From NCBI GenBank assembly GCA_015231405.1, contig JADGBR010000002.1:4642-68641 (forward strand): a stretch of 64,000 bases of DNA. The letters run 5' to 3'. Shown in pieces: positions 1 to 62,647 of this stretch. The stretch's first letter is position 1; every line of letters begins with the position of its first letter. The position numbers were made by a program, and so were the translations under genes. The stretch comes from Candidatus Omnitrophota bacterium. Lineage in GTDB: Bacteria > Omnitrophota > Gorgyraeia > Tantalellales > Tantalellaceae. Below the pieces are notes generated by a model. That model had not been told where the DNA came from and searched no databases. It was given only the letters and a program-made list of their open reading frames with translations.

Positions 1-895
1 TGACAGGCTTATATCTCATTTGTGCTTCGAGGGGCACTATACCGAAATCCTCTTCCCCGGGAAAAATAAGCGCCTTACATCCCGCGTAATAATCTTCAAG
101 CTCAGCGTCATTGACCCACCCCGCGAAATGTATATTCCCCCCGGCCTTTTTTTTCAACTTCTCATACTCAGTGCCGGTCCCAACGATGACTAATTCCTTC
201 TTATTCTTATTGAAAACCTCGACGGCCAGATCCACCCTCTTGTACGGGACTAAGGCGGAAACCACGAGGTAATAAGTCGACCCTTCGGGGACCATAGACC
301 ATGGACCATGGACCATGGTATTTTGGGGATGTGGTTCACTAACGGGCGGATATATCACGGCAGCGTCCCTTCCGTAATACTCTTTTATCCGGTCCTTCAC
401 GGCGTTACTATTGGCTATGAAGTGGTCGACTCCCTCATTCGTTTTCAGGTCCCATTTTTTCATCCAGCTAACTATCCACTTGATCAGCTGCTTCTTCAGA
501 ACGTTCTCACGTGAAAAATACTCGTCAAAAAATTTCCACGCGTACCTGATAGGCGTGTGGCAATAACATATATGCAGCGCCCCTTCCTTCTTTCTCGCTC
601 CCTTAGCCGCGCAGTGGCTCGATGAGATGACCAGATCATACGCCGAAAGGTCGAAGCTTTCTATCGCCCATGGGAAAAATGGCAGAAAACTCCTGTAATT
701 CCTTTCTATGCCTGGTATTCTCATCAGTAAAGACGTTCTTATATCCATTTTTTCCATATCCGCCGCGACACTGCCCTTCTTATGGACCAGGGTGTATATT
801 GTCGATCCCGGGTACAGCTCCAAAAGAGCTTCCAGACATTTCTCCCCACCACGCATGCCGGTCAGCCAGTCATGGACGATCGCTATCTTCCTCAT
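1..895 (-). CDS. Glycosyltransferase family 4 (partial, continues beyond window start)
   Basis: Open reading frame on the minus strand from ATG at 893-895 to the window edge. The N-terminus MRKIAIVHDWLTGMRGGEKCLEAL is a classic GT4 start. The ATGA overlaps the stop of the next gene. It is missing from the ORF track only because no stop codon falls inside the window. Confidence 0.7.
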   Translation of the reverse strand, partial: MRKIAIVHDWLTGMRGGEKCLEALLELYPGSTIYTLVHKKGSVAADMEKMDIRTSLLMRIPGIERNYRSFLPFFPWAIESFDLSAYDLVISSSHCAAKGARKKEGALHICYCHTPIRYAWKFFDEYFSRENVLKKQLIKWIVSWMKKWDLKTNEGVDHFIANSNAVKDRIKEYYGRDAAVIYPPVSEPHPQNTMVHGPWSMVPEGSTYYLVVSALVPYKRVDLAVEVFNKNKKELVIVGTGTEYEKLKKKAGGNIHFAGWVNDAELEDYYAGCKALIFPGEEDFGIVPLEAQMRYKPV

Positions 896-1983: not shown

Positions 1984-2011
1984 TCTTTCTCCTCACCGTT
2001 AGGAGCTGATC

Positions 2012-2092
2012 GTAATTCGTGGTTCGTGGATCGTGATTCGCAGTTTGGTAATTAATAGATCCAACCTACAACCCCGAACCACGAATCACGAA
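2012..2092. repeat. Heptamer-periodic intergenic palindrome. Left arm ATTCGTGG TTCGTGG ATCGTGA TTCG, a loop of about 35 nt, right arm CGAACCACGAATCACGAAC.
   Basis: Read directly from the sequence. It fills the 112-bp gap between two minus-strand genes. Confidence 0.8.
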
Positions 2093-2095
2093 CTG

Positions 2096-3313
2096 TCATT
2101 CCTTCGTCAACATCGCCCTGATCCCCTCGTATATCGACGCCGCGGCGACATCGTGTCCTTTTTCCGTAAAATGGCCGTCGAAATCGTAGTAAAGGGACTT
2201 ATCTTCCGATCCGGCGAAGGACGGCCTGCCCTCCGTAGCCTCGGCGAAGGAGGGATATGTATCGATCCTCATTATCCCGTTCTCCGCTGAAAAATCGTTC
2301 AATAGCCCCAGGACGGACGGCCGGGGATATACCGTTCTTTTGAACCCGTATTCGGCGCGACCTTCTTTCCATTCATCCGCGCTGATCTCCAAAGCGTAGG
2401 GATATGTCACTATCACGAACGGTATCCCTTTCTTACGGAGCTCACGGGCCATGAGGGCTATATGTTCCCTGTTCTTCTGCCATAGCCCGGGAATAAGGTC
2501 CGCTTTCTCGGGCCTAAAAGCGACGAACTTGTCTATATCGAGACGCCTGTCATCCTTGTAAAGGTCATGCGACTTTCCGGTAATATTGTCGAGGACATAT
2601 TTTTTGAACCCGATGCCTCTTATCTTGAAAAGGAATTTATTGATGTCTTCCTCCAGATAAAGATAATAGCGCGAATGCCTGACCAGAAATTTTTCTATGG
2701 GATTATCGCTGAACGCCCTTACCCTTTTTTCGGGCGGGCAGCTTAAAGGAACGCCTGCGCCGTCGACAGTGACGGTCTTACCGTAATCGTGATCGTCATA
2801 AAGGTCCCCCGGGTCATAGGCCAGGATGACCATGTCCGGATCCATCCCCAGCCCTTTGTCCTTGAGGAACAGGTACTCGAGAAGAGGGGAATTGCTGGCT
2901 ATACCGCAATTTATCACCTCGAATGTACGTGGGCTCCGGCTTTCACCGTTCAATTTGCTTTCAAGCAGCTTTACGAAACATTTTTCGGCTTCCACCCCGT
3001 ATCCTTCAGTGAAGGAATCGCCTATGAAAAGTATCCTGTATACGCCTTCGCCCTTTTCTACCGGATATTCCCTGTCCCGAAGCCCCCCGGAGTTGATATC
3101 ATAGGAGACGTTCCACTCCCGCATCACTGACCGGCCCTTTCCGCCCGGGATGAACGAATGGTTGAGCTTCATATCGGCCCTCCGGTACGACATCTCCCTG
3201 GACTTGGCTCCAAGAAGCGCGCCGTGTTTCACCCGGGCGTATATCTCCCCGCCTGCCATAGCCAATAGGATCATATCGACGAATATCATCGAATAAAGTA
3301 TTCTCTTTTTCAT
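2096..3313 (-). CDS. Membrane-anchored SGNH/GDSL hydrolase-family protein (probable polysaccharide O-acyl esterase or transferase)
   Basis: N-terminal TM helix. Block I FIGDSFTEGYG. C-terminal DGHFTEKGH (a DGxH-type block V). Confidence 0.5.
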   Translation of the reverse strand: MKKRILYSMIFVDMILLAMAGGEIYARVKHGALLGAKSREMSYRRADMKLNHSFIPGGKGRSVMREWNVSYDINSGGLRDREYPVEKGEGVYRILFIGDSFTEGYGVEAEKCFVKLLESKLNGESRSPRTFEVINCGIASNSPLLEYLFLKDKGLGMDPDMVILAYDPGDLYDDHDYGKTVTVDGAGVPLSCPPEKRVRAFSDNPIEKFLVRHSRYYLYLEEDINKFLFKIRGIGFKKYVLDNITGKSHDLYKDDRRLDIDKFVAFRPEKADLIPGLWQKNREHIALMARELRKKGIPFVIVTYPYALEISADEWKEGRAEYGFKRTVYPRPSVLGLLNDFSAENGIMRIDTYPSFAEATEGRPSFAGSEDKSLYYDFDGHFTEKGHDVAAASIYEGIRAMLTKE

Positions 3314-4404
3314 TTTTGCCCCATAAGTTCGTCCAGGGCGGCTTCTACTTCCCCAGCGTCCAGCCCGGAAACGACCTTACCTTTTGCCGGGATAACGGCT
3401 CTTACTTTATCGCCCTTTGGAAGCCACTGCGCGGGCATGTGTGTCCCGTTCATGAGGACCACCGAAGCCGTCCCGGCGGCCCCGGCCAGATGAGCGGGAG
3501 CCGAATCTACGCCTATAAATATCCTGGCCCTCTTTAAAAGGAAATACAGGGATCCCAGCGTGGTCTTTCCTGAAATATCCATAAAAAAACCGTCAGCCGA
3601 GGTTGGCCGGAATTTCCCGGCGTCAACCTTTCCTCCTGCTATAACGGTCGGGAGGGAATAACGTTCCCACAAATACCCGATGATCCGCATGAACCCTTTA
3701 TCTTCCCACTCTTTCGACATATCACCGGGGAAAGGGTGCATGACCGCGTAATCTCCCGGCAACCCTATCTCCTTCAAGAGAAGGCCGGCCGACACCTTAT
3801 CTCCGTCAGGAAAAGACAGGTCTATTTTTGCTTCTTTAATGTCTATCCCAATTGCTTTTAACAACTCCAAATTCCTCCGTGTCTCATGCATTATCCCTTT
3901 GTATCTCACTTCAAGGTTAAGCAAAAAACCGCATCCTGTTATCCCGTAGCCAACCCGGTACTTCACTCCGCCAAGGAACATCGCTAGAATGTGCCTCGAA
4001 TCCCCCCTTAGGTCTATACAAAGATCATAACCCTCTTTCGATATAAGTTTAACGAGAGGGAGTAGACTCCTCACGTTCTTAAAGAACTTTGAACCGTTCC
4101 GGTCGAACCATGACGGCCGGAACTCGATGACCCGTGAGATATCCCGGTTGCTATTAACGACAGACGCCGCCCATACCGGAGCGAGAAAATGTATCTTCGC
4201 TTCCGGAAAATTTTTTCTCAAGGGGCCTATAACTACGGTCGAGTTCACGACGTCTCCTATATGATCAAGCCTGATGACCAGTATCTTTTTAACTCTTACG
4301 GGCTCGAACCTCGAGACTAACCGTACAGGAAAAAATATGGCTCTCCCGATAGCGTCGAATATTGTAAAGAACAAAACTAAGAAACGCTTCTTGTATACGT
4401 ACAT
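3310..4404 (-). CDS. Glycosyltransferase family 9 (ADP-heptose:LPS heptosyltransferase family)
   Basis: KKILVIRLDHIGDVV near the N-terminus and GVDSAPAHLAGAAGTASVVL near the C-terminus, both typical of RfaF/RfaC-type GT9. Confidence 0.8.
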   Translation of the reverse strand: MYVYKKRFLVLFFTIFDAIGRAIFFPVRLVSRFEPVRVKKILVIRLDHIGDVVNSTVVIGPLRKNFPEAKIHFLAPVWAASVVNSNRDISRVIEFRPSWFDRNGSKFFKNVRSLLPLVKLISKEGYDLCIDLRGDSRHILAMFLGGVKYRVGYGITGCGFLLNLEVRYKGIMHETRRNLELLKAIGIDIKEAKIDLSFPDGDKVSAGLLLKEIGLPGDYAVMHPFPGDMSKEWEDKGFMRIIGYLWERYSLPTVIAGGKVDAGKFRPTSADGFFMDISGKTTLGSLYFLLKRARIFIGVDSAPAHLAGAAGTASVVLMNGTHMPAQWLPKGDKVRAVIPAKGKVVSGLDAGEVEAALDELMGQK

Positions 4405-4423
4405 GAGAACTCCGGTGACTATT

Positions 4424-4470
4424 GGACCATAGACTATGGACCATGGTCTATGGTCTATGGTCTATGGTCC
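4424..4470. repeat. Heptamer palindrome, family A: GGACCAT AGACTAT GGACCAT | GGTCTAT GGTCTAT GGTCTAT GGTCC
   Basis: Read directly from the sequence. It covers the whole 43-bp intergenic gap and extends into the last 7 codons (TIDHRP) of the upstream GT2 gene. Confidence 0.8.
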
Positions 4471-5164
4471 TCTTACTACCCCCCGCTATCCTATATTTAA
4501 ACAGCGCCAACACCGTCGACACCCCGTCCCTCCATGTTATCTTCTTCCCTTCATCATACCCGCGACCGCGGTACGAGATAGGCACTTCACGTATCTTCAC
4601 ACCCCGGAGGAGCAGTTTCGCCGTGACCTCAGGTTCGAATTCGAACCCGTTAGACCTTATATCCATGTCCTTAAGTATATCCGTTCTCACCATTTTATAG
4701 CACGTTTCCATGTCTGTCAGGGACGCTCCAAACATGACATTCGTGAGAAAGGTCAGAAACCAGTTGACCATATAATGCGGAAGCGACGTAGCTTTCCAAG
4801 TCGAAAGGAACCGCGACCCGAATACGGCACTCGCGCCAGTCTTTACGGCGACCGAGACCAGTTTGGTTATTTCCGCGGGAGAATATTCCATATCCGCGTC
4901 CTGGACTATCACATATTCTCCCGTAGCGCGGGAAAGAGCCGTACGTATCGCCCCCCCCTTCCCCTTGTTCACCTCGTGGTAATAGACCGAAATTCCGTTC
5001 TTCCCTCCAGGGAACTTTTTGCCGAGTATTTCCCTGGTTCCGTCCGTGGATCTATCGTCGACGACTATTATCTCTTTTTCGCACGGGAGGTCGACTAGGA
5101 GCTGAAGGACGTCCCCTATTGTTTTTTCCTCGTTATATACGGGAACCAATATCGATATTTTCAT
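4448..5164 (-). CDS. Glycosyltransferase family 2
   Basis: MKISILVPVYNEEKTIGDVL...IIVVDDRSTDGT (GT2 DXD region). The start is placed at the ATG that overlaps the stop of the upstream gene (ATGA at 5161-5164). Confidence 0.8.
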   Translation of the reverse strand: MKISILVPVYNEEKTIGDVLQLLVDLPCEKEIIVVDDRSTDGTREILGKKFPGGKNGISVYYHEVNKGKGGAIRTALSRATGEYVIVQDADMEYSPAEITKLVSVAVKTGASAVFGSRFLSTWKATSLPHYMVNWFLTFLTNVMFGASLTDMETCYKMVRTDILKDMDIRSNGFEFEPEVTAKLLLRGVKIREVPISYRGRGYDEGKKITWRDGVSTVLALFKYRIAGGSKRTIDHRP

Positions 5165-6216
5165 GCAACCGCCAGTGTTTTGTAGACGTGAGCCGTTTTG
5201 AGGGCTATTTTTTCCCACGTAAGATCGCTCATGATATATTGCCGCAACAGATCTGTTTTAGGGGATCGGAACGCCGTTTCTATCTTGTCTCTGATATCGT
5301 CCGGACTATCGGGCCTTAAATATAACGCCATATCCTTAAAATATTCCCTGGTGCTTCCACCGTCCGTGACCGCCAATTTTGCCCCGGCGAGACCGGCCTC
5401 AAGAGCGGCAAGGCCAGGGGTCTCGAACCAGGCGGGAAGGACGAAAACCCCGCATGCGGCGTAAGCCGACCTTAACATACCCGACCCGTGGTCCAGACGC
5501 CCGAGGAACCGGACATTCTCCCCGGCTTCTTTCCTACACGCTTCCATGTACCACTCGTATCCGGAAACCGCCTCGCCTATGAGTACGAGCTCCCGTCCAG
5601 AACCTTTAACCGCCCTTATGAGATTCAGCTGGTTTTTCCTCGGCTCTATGCGCCCTACGGAAAGGATAAAATCACTGATACCGTAACTTTTGATGAATAT
5701 TTCCGGTTCAGCCGCGAAAAAAACTTTATCCACGCCGTTGGCGACTACCCTCATCTTATCCCTGGGTATCCCGAACAACCTGGATATCTGCGCGGCCTCG
5801 CCTTCGGAGTTCGGGATGATGACATCAGCCGTGTCGAACATTTTCTTCCGGCCGGACGGGAATACCGGACAAAGAACCTTGAGCGTATGCCGGATAACCT
5901 CTTCGGCTTTTTTAATGAACGTCCCTTCCTCGCAAAAAGCCCGCCTGTAATCGGACCAGAAAATAGACTCGAGCACGACTTTTACGCCTCTGGAACGCCC
6001 TACCCTCATTAGAGGAAGACACTCCTTGACCGCCCCGAACACATGTAGTATCGAGTAATCCTCGATCTTATCGTTCCAGGTATCGAACCGCCTCACATCG
6101 ACTCCGGCTAATTTGAGATACTTTTCGAGATTCTCCAAGAGTATCTCACCGCCGCCTTTGTTCTGGAAGGCGGAAGGGTATACGAAGAATGCGACCTTTA
6201 GCTCACCTGTAAACAT
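5161..6216 (-). CDS. Glycosyltransferase family 4
   Basis: 351 aa with a GT-B/GT4-like C-terminal domain (RFLGRLDH...GVFVLPAWFETPGLAALEAGLAGAKLAVTDGGSTREY). Confidence 0.75.
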   Translation of the reverse strand: MFTGELKVAFFVYPSAFQNKGGGEILLENLEKYLKLAGVDVRRFDTWNDKIEDYSILHVFGAVKECLPLMRVGRSRGVKVVLESIFWSDYRRAFCEEGTFIKKAEEVIRHTLKVLCPVFPSGRKKMFDTADVIIPNSEGEAAQISRLFGIPRDKMRVVANGVDKVFFAAEPEIFIKSYGISDFILSVGRIEPRKNQLNLIRAVKGSGRELVLIGEAVSGYEWYMEACRKEAGENVRFLGRLDHGSGMLRSAYAACGVFVLPAWFETPGLAALEAGLAGAKLAVTDGGSTREYFKDMALYLRPDSPDDIRDKIETAFRSPKTDLLRQYIMSDLTWEKIALKTAHVYKTLAVA

Positions 6217-6224
6217 ACGTTTCC

Positions 6225-6310
6225 GTGGGACGTGGGACGTGGGACGTGGGACATAAAACGTTAACTATGCTATAACTCGCACGTCCAACGTCCCACGTCC
6301 TACATCCTAC
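6225..6310. repeat. Heptamer palindrome: (GTGGGAC)x4, 30-nt loop, then GTCCAAC GTCCCAC GTCCTAC ATCCTAC
   Basis: Perfect 4x tandem heptamer at 6225-6252. Degenerate reverse-complement copies at 6283-6310. Confidence 0.85.
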
Positions 6311-6342
6311 GGTATAATCCACCAGTTCAATATTGCTCATTG

Positions 6343-7461
6343 CTATTTTTTCCTGCCAAACTGCCTAACAAGCACATCCAAAATCCGTTCCGCCGCGCGG
6401 CCGTCGCCGAAAGGATTTTTCCAATCCCGCTTACGGCTCAGCATCACGCGCGCGCTTTTTACTATGTTGACGGGATCTATTCCGGCTATTATGTTCGCGC
6501 CCACATCGACCGTTTCAGGCCTTTCGGTGGAATCACGGAGCGTTACGCACGGCACTAAGAGAACGCACGCCTCCTCCTGCACTCCTCCGGAATCCGTAAG
6601 TATAAGCGCCGCGTTAGCCTCGAGCGCGATGAATTCGGTGAAGGCGCATGGCTCCATAAGTTCCATCCATCCGGAAACGGATATGCCGAATTCTTCCATC
6701 TTCTTCACGGTACGCGGGTGGGCTGGGAATATGATCGGAAGCTTGTGGTCCACTCCGATCTTCTTGATCGCTTTCAATATCCCGACGAACCTTTTTTTAT
6801 CGTCGACGTTCTCCTGTCTGTGGATAGTGAGAAGAATATATCCGCCCTTATCAGGAGAGCCCGGCAAATTCCCGGACCATTCCGGCCTTTTGAAGTAAAG
6901 CGTGTCGACGAAAGTATTCCCCGTCACAAAAACCTTTTTCCTTTTCACTCCCTCCGATAAGACTATATCCCTCGATTTTACCGTCGGGACAAAAAGCAGG
7001 TCTGACAGATGATCCGCCATTATCCTGTTTATCTCTTCCGGCATGCTCCTGTCGTAGCTCCTGAGCCCGGCCTCTACGTGAGCGAGCTTGATATCGAACC
7101 CGGTGAACGCCTTTGTGGTCGATATTTTTGACGCGGTGAGAGCGCCGGCTAAAGTGGAATTCGTATCCCCGTGGACCACAACAACGCCCGGCAGCTCCTT
7201 AAGAAGTATCTGCTCGAGCCTCATCATCATCCTGCCCGTGTGATCTCCCTGCCTCCATGGGGCCTTGGACCGTATGTTCAGGTTATAGTCCGGCATCGGC
7301 AGGTCAAGCTCCCGAAAAAACCGTCTCGACATCACGGTCGAATAATGCTGGCCGGTATGGATCGTTACGAACGGTATTTTTTCCCTTACGCTCAACCTGA
7401 TGACCGAACTCAATTTAATGATCTCGGGCCTGGTCCCGAATATGAAAGCTATCTTCATCAT
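6343..7461 (-). CDS. wecB: UDP-N-acetylglucosamine 2-epimerase (non-hydrolysing)
   Basis: MKIAFIFGTRPEIIKLSSVI...HTGQHY is the canonical WecB/MnaA N-terminus. Length 372 aa. Confidence 0.85.
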   Translation of the reverse strand: MMKIAFIFGTRPEIIKLSSVIRLSVREKIPFVTIHTGQHYSTVMSRRFFRELDLPMPDYNLNIRSKAPWRQGDHTGRMMMRLEQILLKELPGVVVVHGDTNSTLAGALTASKISTTKAFTGFDIKLAHVEAGLRSYDRSMPEEINRIMADHLSDLLFVPTVKSRDIVLSEGVKRKKVFVTGNTFVDTLYFKRPEWSGNLPGSPDKGGYILLTIHRQENVDDKKRFVGILKAIKKIGVDHKLPIIFPAHPRTVKKMEEFGISVSGWMELMEPCAFTEFIALEANAALILTDSGGVQEEACVLLVPCVTLRDSTERPETVDVGANIIAGIDPVNIVKSARVMLSRKRDWKNPFGDGRAAERILDVLVRQFGRKK

Positions 7462-7464
7462 GCT

Positions 7465-8628
7465 CTAAATGAAAAACTCAAGTATATTCTCTTCCCCCGC
7501 CTTTTTGCCGATCCTTTCAAGCGATATCAACGCCTGCAGCGCGAACATCGTGCACCATGAATTAATATGATCCGTCTTTTTTCCGTCGAGCGTGTATCCG
7601 TAATAGAACCCGCCCTTTTGGTATTCGTCATCGAGGAGCTGGAACGATAGAAGACATTTTTTCGCTTTACCGAGTTTCTCCACATCGCTCTCAGCGAGAT
7701 ATCCCAGCTCACGCTGTAAAGAGCCGAGCCTGATGACCTGGGCAAGCGCGTCCGACCTGTAATAGTTGACGAATTTGTTATCAACGTATTTCTTGGGTAT
7801 CCCTCCGTCCCCGGCCTGGTTATCAAGCGCCCACCGCACCGCTTTTACCGAAGACTCTATGAGATCTTTCCTGTTGAAGCGGACCCCGGCGTAAAAAAGC
7901 CCTTCCCCCGAATACATATGAGGGTGCAAATGCGTACTCCTGTCGGTCCTCGCGGTTATGAACCTGCCGGACGGGTCCTGGAATTTCATGGCGGCCTCGG
8001 ACAATTCGATCACCGTGTCCTTATACTCCCTCGTCTTGGTCGCCTCGTATAGGTCCGTGAACCCGAGCGCCAGCTTCGCGAGATAACTGCCGCTTTGCGT
8101 TGACCATTTCCAGTTGTCGTCAATTTTCTGGTTGGTGCGGGCATTGTAGACGGCGTAAAAAAGGCCGTCGGGACGTTTCATTTTTCGGAGCAGGAACCCG
8201 GCTATTCTTTCCGAAAGCTCGAGGTATTTTTCGTCCCTGAATATCTTATAGAGATTTATGAGCCCGTAAAGCACCATGCCGTTGTCGAAAGCGTAGATGT
8301 TCTCGCTCTCGAAAGAATAATTCTCGGATTCCTTAAGCGCCTTCAGATAATATCTTGTTTTGACGCCGCCGCACGGGTGGAGAGCCTTTCTCTCCAGCCA
8401 CTGGGCCGCTTCGCGCGCCTTGTCCAGATAGTTCCCGTCGAAGAACTTATTGATGAACAAAAGGGTCGTTATCCCGTAGCCCGTGATCTCGGAATAAACG
8501 AACGAGTAATTATCGTCTTTGATATCGTACCAGGCGTTGAACCCTCCTTTTTCGGTCCCACCGGTATTCTGTATCCCCGAGGTCAATATCCAGTCCCGGG
8601 CCATCATCACTTCTTTACTGTATTCCAT
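7465..8628 (-). CDS. Hypothetical protein, likely (alpha/alpha)6-toroid fold (AGE or C5-epimerase-like superfamily)
   Basis: 387 aa, soluble, aromatic-rich repeats; C-terminal NSWCTMFALQAL. Fold assignment is only an impression. Confidence 0.3.
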   Translation of the reverse strand: MEYSKEVMMARDWILTSGIQNTGGTEKGGFNAWYDIKDDNYSFVYSEITGYGITTLLFINKFFDGNYLDKAREAAQWLERKALHPCGGVKTRYYLKALKESENYSFESENIYAFDNGMVLYGLINLYKIFRDEKYLELSERIAGFLLRKMKRPDGLFYAVYNARTNQKIDDNWKWSTQSGSYLAKLALGFTDLYEATKTREYKDTVIELSEAAMKFQDPSGRFITARTDRSTHLHPHMYSGEGLFYAGVRFNRKDLIESSVKAVRWALDNQAGDGGIPKKYVDNKFVNYYRSDALAQVIRLGSLQRELGYLAESDVEKLGKAKKCLLSFQLLDDEYQKGGFYYGYTLDGKKTDHINSWCTMFALQALISLERIGKKAGEENILEFFI

Positions 8629-9173
8629 TATCCCTCCGTGTTCTGTTTCTTTCTCCTAGCTTTCGCCGGGTTCCCATAACACACGGCGCCGGCAGGAACG
8701 TCCCTGGTCACGACCGAACCGGCTCCGATAACGGCGCCGGCCCCTATATTTACATCGGGAAGTATCGTCGAGTTGGCCCCGATGGACGCTCCCTTCCCCA
8801 CTTTCCATGATATCCCCGAAAGGTCCCGCGTCTTCCCGCTTTCGGGATATTTATCGTTCGTAAAAACGACATGCGGTCCTATGAAGACCCCGTCCTCCAC
8901 GATAAGCCCGTCGTATAAACAGCTTTTATTGTGCACGCGGACGTTATCCCCGATACGGACGTTCCTGTCCACATAGACCCCGTTCCCGATGACGCAGCCT
9001 TTCCCGATAACGGCCTTATCCATGATCTGCACGAAAGCCCAAATTACGGTACCTTCTCCTATAACAGCGCTTTCCGAGACAATAGCCGTCGGGTGCGTTC
9101 TCACTAAAGCCGTTCTTTTACCCATTCGATATTTCTCCTCAACCCTTCGTCTATGAACACTTTCGGCTCCCAT
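8628..9173 (-). CDS. Hexapeptide-repeat (left-handed beta-helix) sugar N- or O-acetyltransferase, PglD/WbbJ-like
   Basis: Repeated [LIV]G-x-x-x-x-I hexapeptides (VIGEGTVI, VIGKGCVIGNGVYV, IGANSTILPDVNIGAGAVIGAGSVV). The true start may be the internal Met at 9125. Confidence 0.8.
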   Translation of the reverse strand: MGAESVHRRRVEEKYRMGKRTALVRTHPTAIVSESAVIGEGTVIWAFVQIMDKAVIGKGCVIGNGVYVDRNVRIGDNVRVHNKSCLYDGLIVEDGVFIGPHVVFTNDKYPESGKTRDLSGISWKVGKGASIGANSTILPDVNIGAGAVIGAGSVVTRDVPAGAVCYGNPAKARRKKQNTEG

Positions 9174-10069
9174 CCGAACAGCTTTTTAGCCAGCGAATAA
9201 TCGCATAAAAGTTTCGGCACCTGCGCCAGCCGGTCCTTTGTGTGCACTATCTTGGACTTCGACCGGCAGAGCTCTTTTATTTTTTCGGCAATATAGTTGA
9301 TCGTAATGGCCTCTCCCGTACCGAAATTCACCGATCTCCCGACGGCATCTTTGTGTATCCCCATTAACAGGAAAGCGTCCACCATGTCGTCGACATAGGT
9401 AAAATCCCTCGACTGGTTCCCGTTCCCGTGTACGGTGATGGGCTTATTCCCGAGAGCTAGCTCGATGAATTTTGGTATGACGTCGTATGTGTGTCGCGGC
9501 CCGTAGGTGTTAAATGGCCTTATCACGGCAACGGGAAGCCCGTAGGTATTCCAGTAAGCATAGCAGTATTTATCCGCGGCGACCTTGCTGGCGGCGTAAG
9601 GAGAGGACGGAAAGAACAGGTGGTCCTCATTGATCGAGCCGCCTATCGTCATGCCGTATATTTCGCTCGAGGAAGTGCAGATGATACGTTTTATGCCGGA
9701 CCCTTCCTTCACCGCGTGAAGCATGTTAAGGGTCCCTATGACGTTCGTTTCCATGACCTCCATCGGATGGTCAAAAGAGTTAGGCACATAAGCGTCGGCG
9801 GCCAGGTGGAAAATTATATCGGGTCTAGCCTTTATCGCCAGGTCTTTGGCGTCGGGCGAAGCGATATTGCCGGTAATTATCTCGTCCAAGTCCTTTTCCG
9901 CATGCGATAAATTCTTTAAAGTGTATTTGGTGGTGCCGGTAGTCGAATTCCCTCTTACAAATATCGATACTTTGGCTCCCTCGCCGAGAAGTTTTTCGGT
10001 AAGGTGAGACCCCATGAACCCGTCCGCCCCCGTAACCAGGACTCTTTTTCCTCTGTATTTACCGAACAT
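9104..10069 (-). CDS. NAD-dependent epimerase/dehydratase (extended SDR)
   Basis: VLVTGADGFMGSHL Rossmann motif and a YxxxK region. 321 aa. Confidence 0.8.
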   Translation of the reverse strand: MFGKYRGKRVLVTGADGFMGSHLTEKLLGEGAKVSIFVRGNSTTGTTKYTLKNLSHAEKDLDEIITGNIASPDAKDLAIKARPDIIFHLAADAYVPNSFDHPMEVMETNVIGTLNMLHAVKEGSGIKRIICTSSSEIYGMTIGGSINEDHLFFPSSPYAASKVAADKYCYAYWNTYGLPVAVIRPFNTYGPRHTYDVIPKFIELALGNKPITVHGNGNQSRDFTYVDDMVDAFLLMGIHKDAVGRSVNFGTGEAITINYIAEKIKELCRSKSKIVHTKDRLAQVPKLLCDYSLAKKLFGWEPKVFIDEGLRRNIEWVKERL

Positions 10070-10737: not shown

Positions 10738-10969
10738 AATACACCTCCTCTCCTACAATTGCTGTTTCAATTTTTTCCCTTTTTCCATTGTATTATCATA
10801 TCTATTATATCACTTCAGGTGATAGATTCAAGTGTTTTGTTCTAACTATTTCATAGATAACAAAGGCGGGGCATTACCGCAAAAGTGAAGATCAAATAAA
10901 ATATCGTTGTTTTTGTGAAGTCCAAGTTTTTCGGAATGACAATTTTAATTATAAACTTGAACATTCATT

Positions 10970-12697: not shown

Positions 12698-13605
12698 CCG
12701 ATAAAGTCCTTCAGGTCGTATTTACGTTCAAGGAACTCTGTTTTCATTAGAGCCCTCTTCTTAAGAGCAAGCGGCAGACGTTTCAACGCTCCGATGAACC
12801 CGATAAGCACCGTGTCCTGTCCCTTGAGAAGGAGAACTAATATCCTTGGCAAGGTGAGAAGAATATGCGCGAACAGTATGTCCTTCTCCCTCACGTTCTT
12901 CCAGATAAAGAGGAACATGTTCCTGTGGGCTATCGTCATCTTCCTCTTTTTCCCGTACTCCCTGTGAAAAGTGGTCGACTCGTCATGGAATACCACCGAC
13001 CGCGGCTCGTAAACCCCTTCCCACCCCAGACACATCGCCCTGAAACAAAGGTCGACCTCCTCCCATATGCCGGGAAGGTATAAGTCGTCGAACCCGCCCA
13101 TCGAAACAAAAGCGTCCCTCCGGAAGGCTCCGGTAGCGATCGAATGGGTCTTGCCTCCGGACATGAAATTATCATAATCCACCCTCATTTTTACCGCCCC
13201 CAGAGAGAATCCCAGGAAAGACTTTCCCCCATTGAAAGTGCCGTCGAAGTTCATGAGCCTGGGAGCGGCGAACATTATCTTTTCGTTCGAGAAATGCGCG
13301 ACGAGCGGGTCAATAAAATCCGGCTCCGCCTTCATATCGGTATTGAGTAGTATGACCACGTCGCTGTCGAGGCCCGCGACGAAAGCGTTGTAAGAAAATA
13401 GGACCAGGTTCCGTGGAGCGGGTATGAATCCCACTCCCGGGAAAGACCCTGCGACCAGCTCACGGCTCGAGTCGCTCGAACAATTATCGAGAACGTATAC
13501 CGCTGAATCGTGTACGGATCTTATGGCTGCCGCGCATACGGAGGGAAGGTACTTTTCCAAAAGGTCTCTGCCGTTATAGTTCAGTATGATTATGTCTATT
13601 TTCAC
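12694..13605 (-). CDS. Glycosyltransferase family 2
   Basis: MKIDIIILNYNGRDLL...YVLDNCSSDSS. Confidence 0.8.
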   Translation of the reverse strand: MKIDIIILNYNGRDLLEKYLPSVCAAAIRSVHDSAVYVLDNCSSDSSRELVAGSFPGVGFIPAPRNLVLFSYNAFVAGLDSDVVILLNTDMKAEPDFIDPLVAHFSNEKIMFAAPRLMNFDGTFNGGKSFLGFSLGAVKMRVDYDNFMSGGKTHSIATGAFRRDAFVSMGGFDDLYLPGIWEEVDLCFRAMCLGWEGVYEPRSVVFHDESTTFHREYGKKRKMTIAHRNMFLFIWKNVREKDILFAHILLTLPRILVLLLKGQDTVLIGFIGALKRLPLALKKRALMKTEFLERKYDLKDFIG

Positions 13606-13628: not shown

Positions 13629-15197
13629 TTATCGTTCCAACGTCTTTCCGGCGTTTCGGTCAGTCAAACAGAAAATCACGACGAAAAAAGCCGAAACCAG
13701 AAAAATAGCCGCGAGCGCTCCTGTAATGACGTAAACCAGATAAGAGTATTCAGGCGCGAAATGGAGTACTTTTATGGACCAGGCGTCAAACGCGTTATAA
13801 TCTTTCATACTGGCAATGATGGGCTTCGCGAACCAGTAATCGGGATCGTACATGAAAGGCACGTCTCTTCCGGATAACAGATAACTTACCCTGGCCATGA
13901 ACATCTTCCAGGCACCCGATATCGGAGAGAGGTCCGGCACAAAGTTTATTAGGTATTCTTCCTGGCCCAGGCGCTCTTTCACGAAAAAATAGAATTTGGA
14001 CTGATTGATCAGCATGCACGGCGCCATGGCGAGGAATCCGGCCATTGAAAAGAGCGTAATAAGTATCCTGGCGGCTAAACCTTTTGAGCGCGAAAGGTAT
14101 CCCCCGAGTACTAAAGCCATAAAAGGGACCGCGATAAGCAGGTATCTGGGTCCCCACGAGAAAAGCGATCCCCTTCTGAAATGGTTGGAATAAAAGAACA
14201 ATACCCCAAGGAAAAACATGAGGTAAAATATCATTTCCTTATCCTTCTTTCTGAATATATCCCTCACGGCGAAGATCGACAGCGCAAGCGGGATGTTATA
14301 ATAAAGGAACCCTTTGCCCGGGCTGACAAGGTAATAAAAGAGCCCTTTGACGAGATGCTGTCCCCTGAGAAGATGCCCCTTCATGTCCGTAACGCTGTAC
14401 GCCGTTCCCCCCGGAAAAAGATCGGAGTAGCCTTTGTAATAAGCGAACGCGAGAGTTGAGGAGACCGCCAATGACAAAAAGAAAGAGACCGCCGCGATAT
14501 ACTTACTTTTTCGGTCCAGCGGGCTGTCACATATCACCCAAAGGCCGTACAGAGTGAAGAAAGGTATATAAATAAAACTTTGCTGCCTCGCGAACATAGC
14601 GCACGCGCCGGCCAATGCCGCGAGGAACAGGAACCGCAACTTTTGTCCATCCTTATACATCAGGATACAGAGCGCCGACGTCAACAGGAACAGAATTAAC
14701 GTCGGCTCCGAAAAACCCGTGCGCGAGTAGACCGGAGCCATGGTACAGAGGCCATACACGAGCGATATCGCAACCGCGCCGGACCGTCCATGTCCCAGCC
14801 TGAGAGATATCAGGAAAATAAGCAACGCGTTGAAAGTCGATACGGTCGGGTTGAAGAAAGACACCGCCATCATCGTTATAAAATCGTGAGGGATATTCAC
14901 CAAAAAACGCGCCGCGAAATGTCCAAAGGCGTAAAAAGGGGTTATAAGGGCCGGAACTCCTATCCCCGCTCTTGAAGAATATCTTTTCCCGTCATTACCC
15001 ACAATGCCAGCATTCACCTTGTAACCAAGTGCGTTCTTTCCGTCCGGCTTCTCTATAAAAGCCGTTCCTTGCCCCAGCACGATACTTTCGGCGGTAAGGT
15101 AATCCTCGTAACCGTCGCCCCCGAAATGCCCTATCGAGAAAAATACGTAGAAAGATAAAAACAAAAAGAAGACCGCAAATCCTGTTTTATAGTTCAT
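13629..15197 (-). CDS. Polytopic membrane glycosyltransferase, GT-C fold (ArnT/PMT-like, GT39/GT83-like)
   Basis: 522 aa, more than 10 predicted TM helices, with an ArnT/PMT-like N-terminal loop region. Confidence 0.45.
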   Translation of the reverse strand: MNYKTGFAVFFLFLSFYVFFSIGHFGGDGYEDYLTAESIVLGQGTAFIEKPDGKNALGYKVNAGIVGNDGKRYSSRAGIGVPALITPFYAFGHFAARFLVNIPHDFITMMAVSFFNPTVSTFNALLIFLISLRLGHGRSGAVAISLVYGLCTMAPVYSRTGFSEPTLILFLLTSALCILMYKDGQKLRFLFLAALAGACAMFARQQSFIYIPFFTLYGLWVICDSPLDRKSKYIAAVSFFLSLAVSSTLAFAYYKGYSDLFPGGTAYSVTDMKGHLLRGQHLVKGLFYYLVSPGKGFLYYNIPLALSIFAVRDIFRKKDKEMIFYLMFFLGVLFFYSNHFRRGSLFSWGPRYLLIAVPFMALVLGGYLSRSKGLAARILITLFSMAGFLAMAPCMLINQSKFYFFVKERLGQEEYLINFVPDLSPISGAWKMFMARVSYLLSGRDVPFMYDPDYWFAKPIIASMKDYNAFDAWSIKVLHFAPEYSYLVYVITGALAAIFLVSAFFVVIFCLTDRNAGKTLER

Positions 15198-19844: not shown

Positions 19845-20662
19845 GCTACGCGGCGTTCCACGCCCCCTGAGCCTTTTTTAACCGCTACGACGAGAACGGA
19901 TCCCGCCCCGGCCCATGGCATATATCTCTCCAGAAATCCACCCACCCGAACAGCGGCGGAATTTTCCCTGTCGTAGACTTTTTTATCTCTGAAAAATCCG
20001 GAGAATTCCACAAGGCTGAAAATATGGTCGACAGGCATGGTCCTTTCGATATGGAAACCGCCGTTCGTTATCGCTCTTTCCAGCTCCCCAACATTGAAAT
20101 ATCTCTGGTAGTAATAGTTCTTTTCGGGTTTACCCATAAGACGCCTGAGTGAACGGCTGCGTTTCATAAGGTTGAGCGGAGCCTTGACACCAAGGAACAC
20201 GTTAAAGTACGGCACTGATAAAATAAGCCTCCCGCCGTCCTTTAGGACGCGGTACGCTTCCCGTAACGCCTTATCCGGACCTTCGGCGAAATGTTCGATG
20301 ACCCCGAAGGAAAGGTAGGCGTCGAAAGATCCTGACCCGAAAGGGAGATCCCTTATATCGGCCGTGGACACTTTCTGTGACGGGTCATATTCCCTTATCT
20401 TCCTCATACATTCATCGTCATAGTCGACGCCTGAGATATCATATCCCATTCCCCTCAACTTTATGACCCACGGGCCAAGCCCGCACCCCGCTTCCAGAAC
20501 ACTTCCTCCACGGGGAAGATAGGAAATAACCGTATCCTTGATCTTAATGACCCTGGGATAAGTGAAAATACCCATGATAGTCGCGATGTCTATCTCTTCC
20601 CAGTTTTCCCTCCAGGCTTTTCGTGTGGCTTCATCGGTCCTTACGGCTTTCCCTTGTCTCAT
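19841..20662 (-). CDS. Class I SAM-dependent methyltransferase
   Basis: VLEAGCGLGPWVIKL motif I. 273 aa. Confidence 0.8.
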   Translation of the reverse strand: MRQGKAVRTDEATRKAWRENWEEIDIATIMGIFTYPRVIKIKDTVISYLPRGGSVLEAGCGLGPWVIKLRGMGYDISGVDYDDECMRKIREYDPSQKVSTADIRDLPFGSGSFDAYLSFGVIEHFAEGPDKALREAYRVLKDGGRLILSVPYFNVFLGVKAPLNLMKRSRSLRRLMGKPEKNYYYQRYFNVGELERAITNGGFHIERTMPVDHIFSLVEFSGFFRDKKVYDRENSAAVRVGGFLERYMPWAGAGSVLVVAVKKGSGGVERRVA

Positions 20663-47336: not shown

Positions 47337-47508
47337 GTACCGGAGAAACGACCCTGAGCAATTCCTTCCCCATTATCCTGTACTGCTTGCCGACTTTAGC
47401 GGCCCTTATTATGCCCTTTTTTATGAGACGCATTGTAGTGCTGGGACTGACTTTAAGCAACTTCTGGACTTCCTGCGTCGTATAGACTTCATTTGACTTT
47501 ATTTCCAT
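47269..47508 (-). CDS. Excisionase/MerR-family helix-turn-helix DNA-binding protein
   Basis: YTTQEVQKLLKVSPSTTMRLIKKGIIRAAKVGKQYRI is an HTH_17/excisionase-type motif. 79 aa. Confidence 0.55.
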   Translation of the reverse strand: MEIKSNEVYTTQEVQKLLKVSPSTTMRLIKKGIIRAAKVGKQYRIMGKELLRVVSPVLEDTVGKAYNKARRWVHDGVDE

Positions 47509-47744
47509 ATCGCATACCCCTCTGGATTAAGATACATTATCTTCATACAGCCATTGCCCGTCAATTACGTAAAATAAATTACCGGTCAACACGTAAAAAG
47601 TCTACCCCAAAGGCTAACATATGTCAATACTATTCTTATTCACTCTCTACATATCTATATTAGTCAGTATTAGTCATTGTATGTCATAATTAGTCTTTAG
47701 GGTCTGTTTTAGGGGCTGCCGGGTTTTCCTGTAATTCGCGAACG

Positions 47745-47760
47745 GCATATGCTATAATCT
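47745..47760 (+). promoter_or_regulatory. Extended -10 promoter element TGCTATAAT upstream of the only plus-strand gene
   Basis: TGnTATAAT at 47751-47759, 38 bp upstream of the ATG at 47798. It lies in a 290-bp AT-rich divergent intergenic region. Confidence 0.35.
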
Positions 47761-47797
47761 TGCCGTCATCACCGCTCCTTCACGGCAACGGGATTGT

Positions 47798-57633: not shown

Positions 57634-57654
57634 GAGATCTCCCTATTCAGCTAT

Positions 57655-57757
57655 CCGCATAGCGCATAGAGCAAAGCGCATAGCGTATTTGTATTCTATA
57701 TGTGGCTGGTCCCTCTTGCAATTCGTGCGCCATGCGCTCTGCGCTTTGCGCTATGCC
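57655..57757. repeat. Heptamer palindrome: CGCATAG CGCATAG AGCAAAG CGCATAG, 42-nt loop, then reverse-complement copies
   Basis: Left arm 57655-57685 and right arm 57728-57757 are reverse complements. The element fills the gap between two CsbB-like genes and supplies the last 2 codons of the upstream gene. Confidence 0.8.
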
Positions 57758-58476
57758 GAATACTCCCCCCGCAAATCCGCCATCTTGATCATTACAAGGC
57801 TCTTGAACGATCTTATCCCATCCCTAAGGGGCTTAACCTTCGACGTCAGTTTATGTTCCCACTTGACCGGAACTTCCGTCACCCTCAGCTTGAATTTTTC
57901 AGCCAGGAAAAGGACTTCCGTATCGAAAGACCAATCGTCCATTTTCTGCGCCGAAAAGAGTTTTTTCGCCGCTTCGCTCCTAAAGAGCTTGAAGCCGCAA
58001 TTAAGGTCCCGAACGGAACAGCCGAATATTATCCTCGAAAGCAATATATATACCTGCCCCATCATCACCCTCGATAACGGTTCCGGAACAATGATCTGCG
58101 AACCCCTCTCGCGCCTTGTCCCGATGGCTATGTCGGAATGTTTAATGACCCCGAGAAATTTGTCTATTTCCGATATCGACGTCGAATTGTCGGCGTCCAT
58201 GAAAAGGACGACATCGCCCCTCGACGCCATGATACCCTTACGGACGGTATACCCCTTGCCTTTATTGACCTCGTTCCTGAGGACCTTGAACTCCTTGAAA
58301 AGACGGCGGCCCGAACATGCTTCACCAAAAGTCCCGTCGCCCGAACCGTCATCGACGACTATCACTTCGCTTGAATAGTCTTTTTTTGAAAGAAAGCCCG
58401 ATATCTCCCGAAGAGTATCCCCGATATTTTTTTCCTCGTTATACGCAGGTATGACCACTGAGAGATAAATATCCAC
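57751..58476 (-). CDS. Polyprenol-phosphate sugar synthase (GT2, DPM1/CsbB-like), second copy
   Basis: LSVVIPAYNEEKNI...VIVVDDGSGDGT...MDADNST. Confidence 0.75.
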   Translation of the reverse strand: MDIYLSVVIPAYNEEKNIGDTLREISGFLSKKDYSSEVIVVDDGSGDGTFGEACSGRRLFKEFKVLRNEVNKGKGYTVRKGIMASRGDVVLFMDADNSTSISEIDKFLGVIKHSDIAIGTRRERGSQIIVPEPLSRVMMGQVYILLSRIIFGCSVRDLNCGFKLFRSEAAKKLFSAQKMDDWSFDTEVLFLAEKFKLRVTEVPVKWEHKLTSKVKPLRDGIRSFKSLVMIKMADLRGEYSA

Positions 58477-59636
58477 TATGCCCCTTTTTTAATGAATTCC
58501 GTGACCTTCTCTATGACATACGCTATTGCTTCTCCGGAAAGCTCAGGATAGACCGGCAGGGATATTATCTCATCCGATAATTTCTCCGATACCGGATAAT
58601 CTTTTTTATCGTAACCGCATGAAGCGTAACATTTCTGGCTGTATAACGGTACCGGATAATACACCCTGGCCCCTATCCCGTTCGCTTCCAGAAAATCCTT
58701 AAGTCCTTCCCGGTCCTTGACCGCTATGGTGTATTGGTGATAAGTGTGTACGTTCCCCGGCGCCACTTTAGGCGTCCTTATCGGCAGACCTTTAAATGCG
58801 GAGTCGTATTTAGCGGCTACACTTCGCCTCGCTTCGAGCCATTTGTCAAGATATCTGAGTTTCACTCTGAGAACAGCCGCCTGCAGGCTGTCCAGTCTTG
58901 AGTTATACCCCAATTCTTCATGTATGTATTGCGTCTTGCTCCCGTGAACTCTTAACGACTTTACATGGTCGATGAGATCCTTATTATCGGATATCACCAT
59001 ACCCCCGTCGCCGAAACCGCCGAGATTTTTACTCGGGAAAAAACTTAAACAGCCCGAATCACCCAAAGATCCGGCCTTTTTACCCCTATAGGTAGCCCCT
59101 ATAGCCTGGGCCGTATCCTCTATTACCTTAAGCCCGTATTCCCCGGCGATATCGAGTATCCGCGTCATATCCGCGCATTGCCCGTACAGGTGCACCGGAA
59201 TTATGGCCTTGACTTTGCCCTGCTGACCATGGCCCATGGACGATGGACCATGGACCTTGGCGTTGTGGTTCTTCAAATACTCTTCCACCTTATTTACGTC
59301 GATGTTATACGTTTCCGGATCTACGTCCACGAATACCGGCCGGGCTCCGACGATAGATATAGCTTCGGCCGTAGCCATAAAAGTGAACGGCGTAGTTATC
59401 ACCTCGTCTGCCCGGCCTATTCCGAGCGCGACGAGCGACAATATCAAAGCGTCTGTCCCCGAAGCGACTCCGGAAGCGTATTTCGTCCCGGAATAAGCGG
59501 CCACCTCATCCTCGAGCGCTTTGACCTCTTCAGATAAGATGAACTTCTGGCTGCCGATGACCCGGAGAACCGTCTCATCTATTTCTTTCTTAATGCTTTT
59601 ATACTGCGCTTCGAGATCTAGTAATGGTACTTTCAT
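58476..59636 (-). CDS. DegT/DnrJ/EryC1/StrS-family PLP-dependent sugar aminotransferase
   Basis: 386 aa. GSQKFILSEEVKALEDEVAAY, GTDAL, AIIPVHLYG and SFFPSKNLGGFGDGG motifs. It contains an in-frame heptamer-repeat insertion (HGPSSMGHGQQ). Confidence 0.85.
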   Translation of the reverse strand: MKVPLLDLEAQYKSIKKEIDETVLRVIGSQKFILSEEVKALEDEVAAYSGTKYASGVASGTDALILSLVALGIGRADEVITTPFTFMATAEAISIVGARPVFVDVDPETYNIDVNKVEEYLKNHNAKVHGPSSMGHGQQGKVKAIIPVHLYGQCADMTRILDIAGEYGLKVIEDTAQAIGATYRGKKAGSLGDSGCLSFFPSKNLGGFGDGGMVISDNKDLIDHVKSLRVHGSKTQYIHEELGYNSRLDSLQAAVLRVKLRYLDKWLEARRSVAAKYDSAFKGLPIRTPKVAPGNVHTYHQYTIAVKDREGLKDFLEANGIGARVYYPVPLYSQKCYASCGYDKKDYPVSEKLSDEIISLPVYPELSGEAIAYVIEKVTEFIKKGA

Positions 59637-59749
59637 TATTTTCCTCTCTGTTCTTTGGTTGGTTTTTATTCACCATTTTCGGGCGCGATAAATCGCGCCC
59701 CTACATCACCCTAAACTCGCTAACGAGCTCGGGCCGGGGGACCCCGCCC

Positions 59750-61561: not shown

Positions 61562-61573
61562 CGCTCCTCGTTG

Positions 61574-61666
61574 CTTTCAGCTATCGGCTTTCAGCTATCA
61601 GCTATCAGCTTTTAATGTAGGCTAAACACAATAAAACTGAAGGCTGAAAGCTGGAGGCTGATAGCT
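61574..61666. repeat. Heptamer palindrome, family E copy 1: (CTTTCAG/CTATCAG)x5, loop TAATGTAGGCTAAACACAAT, then CTGAAAG-type copies
   Basis: Read directly from the sequence. It lies in the cysN-cysD gap. Confidence 0.8.
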
Positions 61667-62546: not shown

Positions 62547-62549
62547 TTT

Positions 62550-62641
62550 TTTCAGCTTTCAGCTATCAGCTTTCAGCCTTCAGCTTTATTGGGGTTAGCT
62601 TACATTAAAAGCTGACAGCTGATAGCTGAAAGCTGAAGGCT
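62550..62641. repeat. Heptamer palindrome, family E copy 2 (inverted relative to copy 1, judged from the loop sequence)
   Basis: Arms TTCAGCT TTCAGCT ATCAGCT... The loop ATTGGGGTTAGCTTACATTA is the reverse complement of a near-copy of the copy-1 loop. Confidence 0.8.
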
Positions 62642-62647
62642 AAGAGC

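Follow-up and report, generated by a model that had tools for sequence, protein, structure and literature searches.

What are the long imperfect palindromes with heptamer-repeat arms that fill seven gene spacers in one 64-kb stretch of a Candidatus Omnitrophota genome (contig JADGBR010000002.1; this stretch is referred to below as the window), and how did they come to be there? The seven elements, designated E1 to E7, were analyzed within this window, to which all statements on copy number apply. Each element is a tandem 7-nt array that stands opposite its own reverse complement, with an AT-rich loop between the two. With a probability of roughly 0.6, we consider them to represent several dispersed, slippage-prone families of heptanucleotide-repeat palindromes that evolve rapidly and probably have incidental effects on mRNA processing. 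Bacterial 7-base repeats are a known class, albeit a poorly understood one, to which the elements belong; what is new here is their occurrence in Omnitrophota.

A previous reading of the window made without database searches (the sequence-only reading) had listed these intergenic palindromes and described their architecture as (N7)n-loop-(rcN7)n. All of the listed palindromes were found as described. In six of the seven, the arms consist of three to six tandem heptamers opposite their reverse complement. Tandem Repeats Finder reported period 7 with 3.4-5.4 copies at all loci but E7, and an inverted-repeat search paired arms of 20-37 nt with a complementarity of 75-93% across loops of 5-43 nt, the loop of the palindrome at 63181-63327 (E7) being 95 nt. 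A lag-match scan of the window for periods 4-15 detected arrays at 7 and its multiple 14 only, confirming that the architecture is specific to period 7. The number of period-7 arrays was eight, whereas first-order Markov simulations (n = 100) yielded 0.0 per window, and the proposed excess over a composition-based null thus held when checked on the window. Lag-7 autocorrelation was 0.69 and 0.79 for E1. The absence of a strict heptamer from E7 had been recognized correctly, yet lag 7 was also the top autocorrelation lag in both of its arms (0.36 and 0.44, with shuffle p values of 0.12 and 0.005, respectively). The six strict heptamer elements (seven with E7) are located in spacers, and two direct arrays are located in coding sequence. 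All loci in the earlier catalogue were retained, with the two coding arrays, both of the GGACCAT type, having been missed. Stop triplets on the coding strand were not consistently present in the heptamer units of the window.

The sequence-only reading had also held that each locus has its own primary sequence, in a manner unlike that of REP/BIME or MITE families, and this part of it did not survive. E5 and E6, which flank cysD in opposite orientations, share a mean column identity of 87% with the nonrepetitive loop included, and a variant unit of E6, TATCAGC, was found by the inverted-repeat search to be mirrored at equal depth in both arms. The unit GGACCAT is present at three sites in the window: the E2 hairpin and the two direct arrays in coding sequence. 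The E7 motif TAGTGATGGGTGA recurs in a nonorthologous spacer of a close relative, and the CAGCTTT unit of E5 and E6 recurs in another Omnitrophota metagenome-assembled genome (MAG), L164, as a direct CAGCTTT/CAGCCAT array in a different spacer. The appearance of one heptamer per locus is most likely a sampling of several multicopy families of which only 64 kb is visible. The array in the DegT aminotransferase gene corresponds to a 10-residue insertion (VHGPSSMGHG) that lies in a variable loop, is absent from 14 other homologs, and is present in a contig of the close relative (L161). The right arm of E2 encodes the COOH-terminal residues and stop codon of the GT2 open reading frame (ORF) at 4448-5218, adding a tail of 6-10 residues, with the extension TIDHRP, in comparison with homologs.

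Orthologous positions were compared in the close relative, which is represented by three short contigs from JGI sample 3300042261 (L161, L162, and L163; protein identity of 89-94%) that permit four comparisons, at the positions of E2, E4, E5, and E6. CysD-anchored scans of genome and metagenome collections yielded no close relative (best identities of 79% and 77%). The E5 position in L162 is occupied by an element of the same family in the same orientation and with a homologous loop (fold of -41.4 kcal/mol, z of -5.41). The 3' arm of this ortholog is seven bases, or one unit, shorter than that in the window, with several units altered, and its 5' arm contains approximately five units, compared with four and a partial unit in the window. 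The seven-base difference is a net value, given that the aligner splits it into gaps of 4 and 3 nt, and it fits whole-unit slippage. The heptamer slippage suggested earlier is therefore backed by E5, as is variation in copy number between orthologous spacers. The unit number of the DegT coding array is equal in the window and L161.

The other three positions have turned over. At the E6 position, the relative carries an unrelated GTGCACGG-type repeat, and a repeat of the same type is present at the E4 position; three copies occur across L161 and L162, and those at the E4 and E6 positions showed no significant fold (z of -1.45 and +0.10, respectively). The gene end in L161 that is orthologous to the E4 site reads GCG TAG and is followed by the unrelated repeat. 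The dispersed spacer repeat of the relative, AGTGCACGGGTTTTGAAAAGTGCACGGGTGCACGGGTTG, consists of units of approximately 8 nt and was observed at 299-388 and 2278-2376 of L161 and at 447-504 of L162, with two of these copies being at the spacers orthologous to those of E4 and E6. The E2 position in L163 contains a 198-nt element in which three TAGTGATGGGTGAAGG repeats lie opposite (CACCCGT)3(CACCCAT)2. This element shares its family, ATGGGTG/CACCCAT, with E7, which is the degenerate member of that family in the window, the strict array being that in L163. Only 2 nt lie between the GT2 and GT9 genes in L164, a less closely related Omnitrophota MAG, and this junction represents an empty E2 site, from which the boundaries of the element are not definable. 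Heptamer families enter, or originate within, the very short gaps of otherwise tightly packed co-directional genes, with direct arrays also being present in at least one tolerant protein loop. Comparison of the homologous loci indicates that repeats have inserted into the E2 junction and into DegT, and that elements are copied in either orientation and quickly replaced between close relatives.

The coordinates of the elements are listed in Table 1. Nearly the entire window, as revealed by the ORF table and a Pfam scan, is a minus-strand run of polysaccharide-biosynthesis genes, including those for GT1, GT2, GT4, and GT9 transferases, DegT aminotransferase, UDP-GlcNAc 2-epimerase, and asparagine synthases, among others, together with cysD, cysN/C, and cysC. 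The genes are tightly packed, the majority overlapping or being separated by <30 nt, and inspection of the ORF table revealed approximately 13 gaps of >40 nt, seven of which are the hairpin loci. E1 occupies the whole spacer from the stop codon of the ORF at 2096-3313 to the start of the GT4 gene at 892-1983, and E3 lies between the genes for UDP-GlcNAc 2-epimerase and GT1. The observation that elements abut or supply stop codons was borne out in three cases: in addition to the E2 arm, E5 begins at the stop codon of cysD, with TAG being part of its first unit, and an arm of E4 contains the stop codon TAG of the ORF at 57751-58476, the first E4 unit overlapping the native gene end GCA-TAG. E6 ends 7 nt upstream of the ATG of cysD.

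Table 1 Positions and properties of the heptamer elements of the window and of the hairpins found in Fibrobacterota MAGs. Array, period-7 arrays and units reported by Tandem Repeats Finder; Fold, free energy of minus-strand RNA in kcal/mol, with the z-score in parentheses.
Feature	Position	Strand	Unit or motif	Array	Fold (z)	Description
E1 hairpin	2008-2094		TTCGTGG/CCACGAA	2016-2040, 2070-2093; TTCGTGG/AACCACG	-46.2 (-6.25)	Arms at ~2010-2048 and ~2062-2092
E2 short hairpin	4424-4470		GGACCAT/ATGGTCY	4417-4470; GGACCAT/CTATGGT	-30.4 (-4.98)	Includes CCATGG palindrome; loop of 5 nt
E3 hairpin	6223-6312		GTGGGAC/GTCCCAC	6224-6252, 6281-6311; CGTGGGA, left arm with 100% matches	-55.4 (-6.71)	Left arm of 4 perfect copies
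E4 hairpin	57654-57759		CGCATAG/CTATGCG	57656-57685, 57726-57756; CGCATAG	-55.1 (-4.24)	Loop of 42 nt
E5 hairpin	61570-61668	-	CAGCTTT/CAGCTAT	61573-61612, 61633-61666; CAGCTTT/CAGCTAT		cysD-cysN/C spacer
E6 hairpin	62549-62653	+		62550-62587, 62608-62641; CAGCTTT/CAGCTAT	-51.6 (-7.22)	Copy of E5 in opposite orientation; cysC-cysD spacer
E7 degenerate hairpin	63181-63327		TAGTGATGGGTGA/TCACCCATCACTA (terminal motif)		-56.5 (-4.22)	147 nt
Direct array, x4.3	289-318	-	GGACCAT			In GT4-family glycosyltransferase gene; encodes TMVHGPWSMVP in the inter-domain linker
Direct array, x5.1	59225-59260	-	GACCATG			In DegT aminotransferase gene (58476-59636)
Fibrobacterota heptamer hairpins	L072 1675-1756, 10885-10971; L070 4332-4470; L148 10846-10890		AAGGTTT, CAAAGTG/CAAATTG			

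Folding of the minus-strand (transcribed) RNA, with minimum free energies converted to z-scores against dinucleotide shuffles, revealed strong structure in all seven elements, for which free energies ranged from -30 to -57 kcal/mol and z-scores from -3.1 to -7.2. The predicted hairpins are 20-35 bp in length, and the next start codon is situated 7-30 nt downstream. Given that these are stable stem-loops located just 3' of stop codons, we considered whether they might be unusual intrinsic (Rho-independent) terminators or attenuators, an explanation that we judge very improbable. No U-tract was present 3' of the hairpin on the minus strand at any of the seven elements, a consensus terminator scan of the window remained at background level with no site overlapping an element, and stems of 20-35 bp and loops that reach 95 nt do not remotely match the geometry of a terminator. 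The elements are, moreover, inside what appear to be long operons. The absence of a U-tract, the length of the stems, and the proximity of the next start codon indicate that the elements are not intrinsic terminators, consistent with the doubt on this point already expressed in the sequence-only reading. A consensus promoter scan also remained at background level, with one promoter-like match in the E4 loop that was no better than chance. Rfam 15 gave no matches at gathering thresholds, and in E-value mode only sub-threshold eukaryotic pre-miRNA models were matched, at 62551-62637, 61579-61666, 4422-4473, and 6230-6312; these matches reflect a generic geometry similar to that of RNase III substrates, not homology.

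To place the elements in a wider context, we surveyed approximately 1.7-1.9 Mb of cysD-anchored loci from unrelated taxa of many phyla. At a threshold of approximately four copies, no other period from 5 to 15 was as frequent as period 7, which in 1.9 Mb of these loci accounted for 35 arrays, whereas periods 6, 8, and 9 accounted for 9, 6, and 1, respectively. Arrays with an inverted partner numbered 15 for period 7 (7 in the window and 8 in the survey), compared with 0-2 for periods 5, 6, 8, and 9. Outside the window, paired arrays were found in the Fibrobacterota MAGs L070, L072, and L148 and in the Ignavibacteriales MAG L079. The hairpin in L070 and one of the two in L072 lie directly 3' of the stop codon of cysD, as in the window, and the two L072 hairpins have identical arms, variant unit included, and unrelated loops. 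A palindromic tetranucleotide was present in the unit of six of nine paired families, compared with 20 of 59 unpaired families, which amounts to a trend only (Fisher p = 0.076); the cores concerned are CATG, ACGT, GCGC, AGCT, TTAA, and TGCA/AATT in E2-E6, L070, L072, and L148. Such a core may be a clue to a fold-back origin of the paired arrays, with the caveat that the trend is not significant.

Direct arrays in the survey add to this picture. The Phycisphaerae MAG L014 contains five copies of AACCACG, the E1 unit, and an array of GCTGATA/GCTGAAA, the E5/E6 unit, at 13772-13816 and 9120-9150. Recurrence across phyla in the form of real arrays was thus apparent for AACCACG in L014 and for CAGCTWT in L014, L145, and L164, which hints at a limited heptamer repertoire shared by sequence across phyla. 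Two further candidates for such recurrence, in L055 and L146, were rejected because they were within chance for an 18-mer with two mismatches. In the metagenome contig L145 (WBZR01001557.1), the spacers at 4160-4346, 5190-5850, 6362-6409, 8553-8638, 9703-9980, and 12713-12759 are mosaics of adjoining heptamer arrays with the units GGATTCA, GTTTTGA, CTGTTGA, GCCATCA, and GCTATCA, as well as those of the CAGCTWT type, and the order of arrays is repeated at two sites. In the Gemmatimonadales MAG L034, direct arrays are present on both sides of cysD (9939-10000 and 10888-10949), with the units ACTAACG/ACCAACG upstream and GGGAATC/AGGAATC downstream, the downstream unit being the G-quadruplex-type heptamer described in Xanthomonas. 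L164 contains a period-8 array of approximately six copies of ACTYTGAC at 20586-20632, immediately upstream of a GT2 gene, showing that spacer arrays in Omnitrophota are not all based on 7 nt.

Dispersed imperfect palindromes of approximately 100 nt are familiar from the REP/BIME/REPIN, Correia (NEMIS), and MITE-like families, which occur in either orientation in the spacers of co-directional genes and are transcribed along with them, with consequences for mRNA stability or RNase III processing. These families have a defined consensus without internal 7-nt periodicity, as well as known or suspected mobilizing enzymes (RAYT, transposases) or target duplications. The elements of the window resemble them in size, palindromy, presence in both orientations, and spacer position and differ from them in the 7-nt periodicity of the arms. 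The short tandemly repeated repetitive (STRR) sequences of cyanobacteria reportedly have the units CCCCAGT, TTGGTCA, and CAACAGT (Mazel, 1990). The window elements do not match STRR sequences in the strict sense, given that the host is not a cyanobacterium and the units TTCGTGG, GGACCAT, GTGGGAC, CGCATAG, and CAGCTTT differ from those reported. The L145 mosaics resemble cyanobacterial STRR mosaics, and one L145 unit, ATCCTGA, fits the Geobacter consensus MTYCTGA.

The novelty implied by the sequence-only reading was overstated, in that an intergenic excess of heptamers, paired arrays on opposite strands, and hairpins with heptamer stems have all been published (PMC4679880, PMC4692102, PMC2700814, PMC4476775, PMC3488679, PMC12721329). 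A general bacterial excess of heptanucleotide simple sequence repeats (SSRs) has been attributed to polymerase slippage, with the preference for seven left unexplained (Mazel, 1990, and Mrazek, 2007, as summarized in PMC4679880 and PMC4692102). With these STRR and other heptanucleotide SSRs, as summarized there, the window elements have in common tandem 7-nt units, strong overrepresentation relative to other unit lengths, a mostly intergenic location, and variability between close relatives. They fit the class in having a 7-nt unit present in at least three copies, an excess of period 7, a mainly intergenic location, and variation in unit number. Most described arrays of the STRR type are direct, whereas the intergenic copies in the window are as a rule paired in hairpins; some STRR-like repeats and the GGGAATC repeats of Xanthomonas and Nostoc nevertheless form inverted pairs capable of adopting stem-loops (PMC4692102).

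The closest published counterparts are the so-called class 3 global regulator sites of Geobacter metallireducens, eight in number, at each of which two arrays of five tandem heptanucleotide repeats lie on opposite strands at a variable distance from each other, as in the proB-proA spacer; in the same genome, GGACCGG x4 elements number 49 and are found both inside genes and in spacers (Aklujkar et al., 2009; PMC2700814). The Geobacter repeat families are multicopy, are absent from the sister species, and have no known function, and the authors interpreted the sites, without experiment, as being for IHF/HU or regulatory RNA (PMC2700814). Two opposed intergenic heptamer arrays are common to both systems, with arms of three to six units and loops of 5-43 nt in the window. 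The Geobacter units are MTYCTGA and GGACCGG, no window unit fits MTYCTGA, the Geobacter host is a Desulfuromonadota isolate, and multicopy status applies within the 64-kb window only to E5/E6 and GGACCAT. In the P6b region of the Nostoc tRNA-Leu(UAA) group I intron, the stem is formed by degenerate, mutually pairing heptanucleotide repeats that are gained or lost in steps of 7 nt on one or both sides, and two unrelated repeat classes have the same architecture (PMC4476775, PMC3488679). That stem is restricted to Nostocales and forms part of a self-splicing tRNA intron, whereas the window elements separate protein genes. In the 5' untranslated region (UTR) of Haemophilus influenzae hmw1A, transcribed (ATCTTTC)n makes up one side of a long RNA hairpin. 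Cleavage of this hairpin by RNase III alters expression, and its structure affects how the repeat expands and contracts (PMC12721329). Long hairpins with heptamer arms are also present in the window, where transcription is presumed from the co-directional arrangement of the genes. The hmw hairpin differs from them in that the repeat of >10 units forms only one arm, the other being a G-rich tract, in that it resides in the 5'-UTR of a phase-variable adhesin gene, and in that it has been characterized experimentally.

Several observations weigh against our interpretation of the elements as dispersed, slippage-prone repeat families. The aligned identity of E5 between the window and L162 is 86%, higher than that of the synonymous third positions of cysD (70%), with the proviso that repetitive sequence inflates alignment identity, and E5 has been kept as a strong hairpin in the same spacer of the relative despite its unit changes. 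This hints, from sequence conservation, at constraint on at least the E5 copy. In addition, the E2, E4, and E6 junctions hold some repeat in both the window and the relative, and such double occupancy calls for either a preference for these sites or a function that demands an element in the spacer. The window yielded no sign of mobility, such as a transposase or target-site duplication: no transposase was found among the 20 window ORFs scanned against Pfam, no insertion sequence was seen, and no flanking direct duplication was obvious at E5 or E6 as judged by eye only. The conservation of E5 and the double occupancy of junctions, together with the location of all seven elements between co-directional genes, the filling of whole spacers, the very stable folds, and the experimental precedent of a hairpin that has a heptamer-repeat arm and is cut by RNase III (PMC12721329), would be in keeping with selected intercistronic RNA elements. 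Such elements would be RNase III sites or 3'-exonuclease barriers that tune the stability or translation of individual cistrons, with any heptamer serving the purpose and only structure mattering. REP/BIME, Correia elements, and the hmw 5'-UTR hairpin are reported to act in this manner. We nevertheless consider this explanation unlikely. The repeats found in place of E4 and E6 in the relative lack a stable hairpin, the more distant Omnitrophota MAG lacks a spacer at the E2 junction, and the same units form direct arrays inside genes, where a hairpin role is impossible. Pairing was not consistently better on either strand in a test for selection at the RNA level, and a covariation analysis of E5, E6, and the L162 ortholog, too few sequences for a strong test, revealed compensation in only 1 of 32 pairs and mismatches at several variable positions. 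The lack of strand bias, the single compensated pair, and the missing E4 and E6 hairpins in the relative thus do not support the notion that the elements are maintained as RNA structures.

The processing, stability, and protein-binding roles proposed in the sequence-only reading are all weakened by the positional turnover in the relative. With regard to protein binding, the 7-nt register might be imposed by cooperative binding of a nucleoid protein or global regulator to DNA, or by proteins that bind single-stranded RNA, such as those with a cold-shock domain, at approximately 7 nt each. The strict periodicity and conserved cores such as AGC in CAGCTWT would suit this idea, as would the interpretation of the Geobacter paired arrays as IHF/HU-type sites by their authors (PMC2700814) and the ratio of one CspB per heptamer cited in PMC4679880. 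It remains improbable, given that at least six unrelated heptamers within 64 kb would imply many specific binders or none, that arrays are also found within coding sequence, that unrelated repeats replace the elements in the close relative, and that no candidate binder was identified. We attach a similarly low probability to a purely local origin, in which slippage would have expanded a heptamer seeded on the spot and an intrastrand template switch would then have copied the array into an inverted arm, independently for each hairpin and without dispersal between sites. The overlap of the first E4 unit with the native gene end (GCA-TAG, or GCG-TAG in the relative) and the presence of five different units at five sites are consistent with such seeding, and palindromic cores could nucleate fold-back, but the core trend is not significant, E5 and E6 have a nonrepetitive loop in common, and the E7 motif, GGACCAT, and CAGCTTT recur at nonorthologous sites and in other genomes. 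A more far-reaching possibility, which we regard as rather doubtful, is that Omnitrophota, Fibrobacterota, and Ignavibacteriales share a cross-phylum class of mobile heptamer-armed palindromes. Their 7-nt register would then stem from dedicated machinery (a nuclease or transposase), or from structure-dependent expansion coupled to transcription and RNase III, that creates, copies, and resizes them and targets gene junctions and protein loops. Chimeric fold-back joins introduced during metagenome assembly, a concern because the source is a MAG, are extremely improbable, since E5, the in-frame DegT array, and an element of the E7 family are also present in JGI contigs that were assembled independently from a different sample and the elements lie exactly in spacers with reading frames intact.

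In our preferred interpretation of dispersed heptanucleotide-repeat families, the elements would be selfish or nearly neutral repeats at the DNA level, like other bacterial heptanucleotide SSRs, rather than purpose-built regulators. Arrays would arise and change in size by replication slippage, and the inverted arm would be generated by fold-back template switching or by copying of a whole element. Co-transcription within polycistronic mRNA would yield imperfect double-stranded hairpins of 20-35 bp that, lacking a U-tract, would not terminate transcription and would serve as RNase III substrates and as barriers to 3' exonucleases. Probable side effects would include changes in segmental mRNA stability and in translation of the flanking genes, and perhaps in how readily ribosomes reach the start codons located 7-30 nt downstream. 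Single elements such as E5 may have been recruited to this end, a possibility at which the sequence conservation of E5 hints.

Other features of the window were also examined. The closest protein matches are from Candidatus Omnitrophota, with CysC being 100% identical to an NCBI MAG protein. The sulfate-activation cluster (59750-61561 and 62648-63160) encodes a CysN with a fused APS-kinase domain in addition to a stand-alone CysC, and heptamer elements lie between all three cys genes. The cysN/C-DegT spacer has no heptamer element and contains a short G+C-rich hairpin, GGGCGCGATTTATCGCGCCC, without a U-tract at 59681-59700. Within the divergent intergenic region at 47337-47797, upstream of the sole plus-strand gene block, which comprises a B12-binding radical SAM gene, direct repeats of approximately 10-12 nt are present at 47658-47718 (TATTAGTCAG twice, TTTAGGGGCTGT twice, and the related ATGTCATAATTAGTC); by sequence, these repeats resemble operators or iteron-type sites. 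Neither tRNA nor tmRNA genes were detected in the window. The G+C content of the window is 50% and is flat along its length, and the possibility that the elements mark compositional boundaries of horizontal transfer was rejected on this basis.

Our findings extend a little-studied heptanucleotide-repeat phenomenon to an uncultured phylum. The paired-array form is the rule in the window, and the same architecture is present in Fibrobacterota and Ignavibacteriales MAGs. The elements provide a small but clean data set with which to address why bacterial repeats favor seven bases and how such elements are copied, given that a conserved ortholog differs by a single unit in length, copies face either way, one site is empty, other repeats have taken over orthologous positions, and proteins have acquired in-frame insertions. 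The elements extend or interrupt reading frames, likely affect operon expression, and can confound the annotation and assembly of MAGs. If some copies do indeed function as RNase III sites, they would provide a simple and evolvable means of decoupling genes in long polysaccharide operons.

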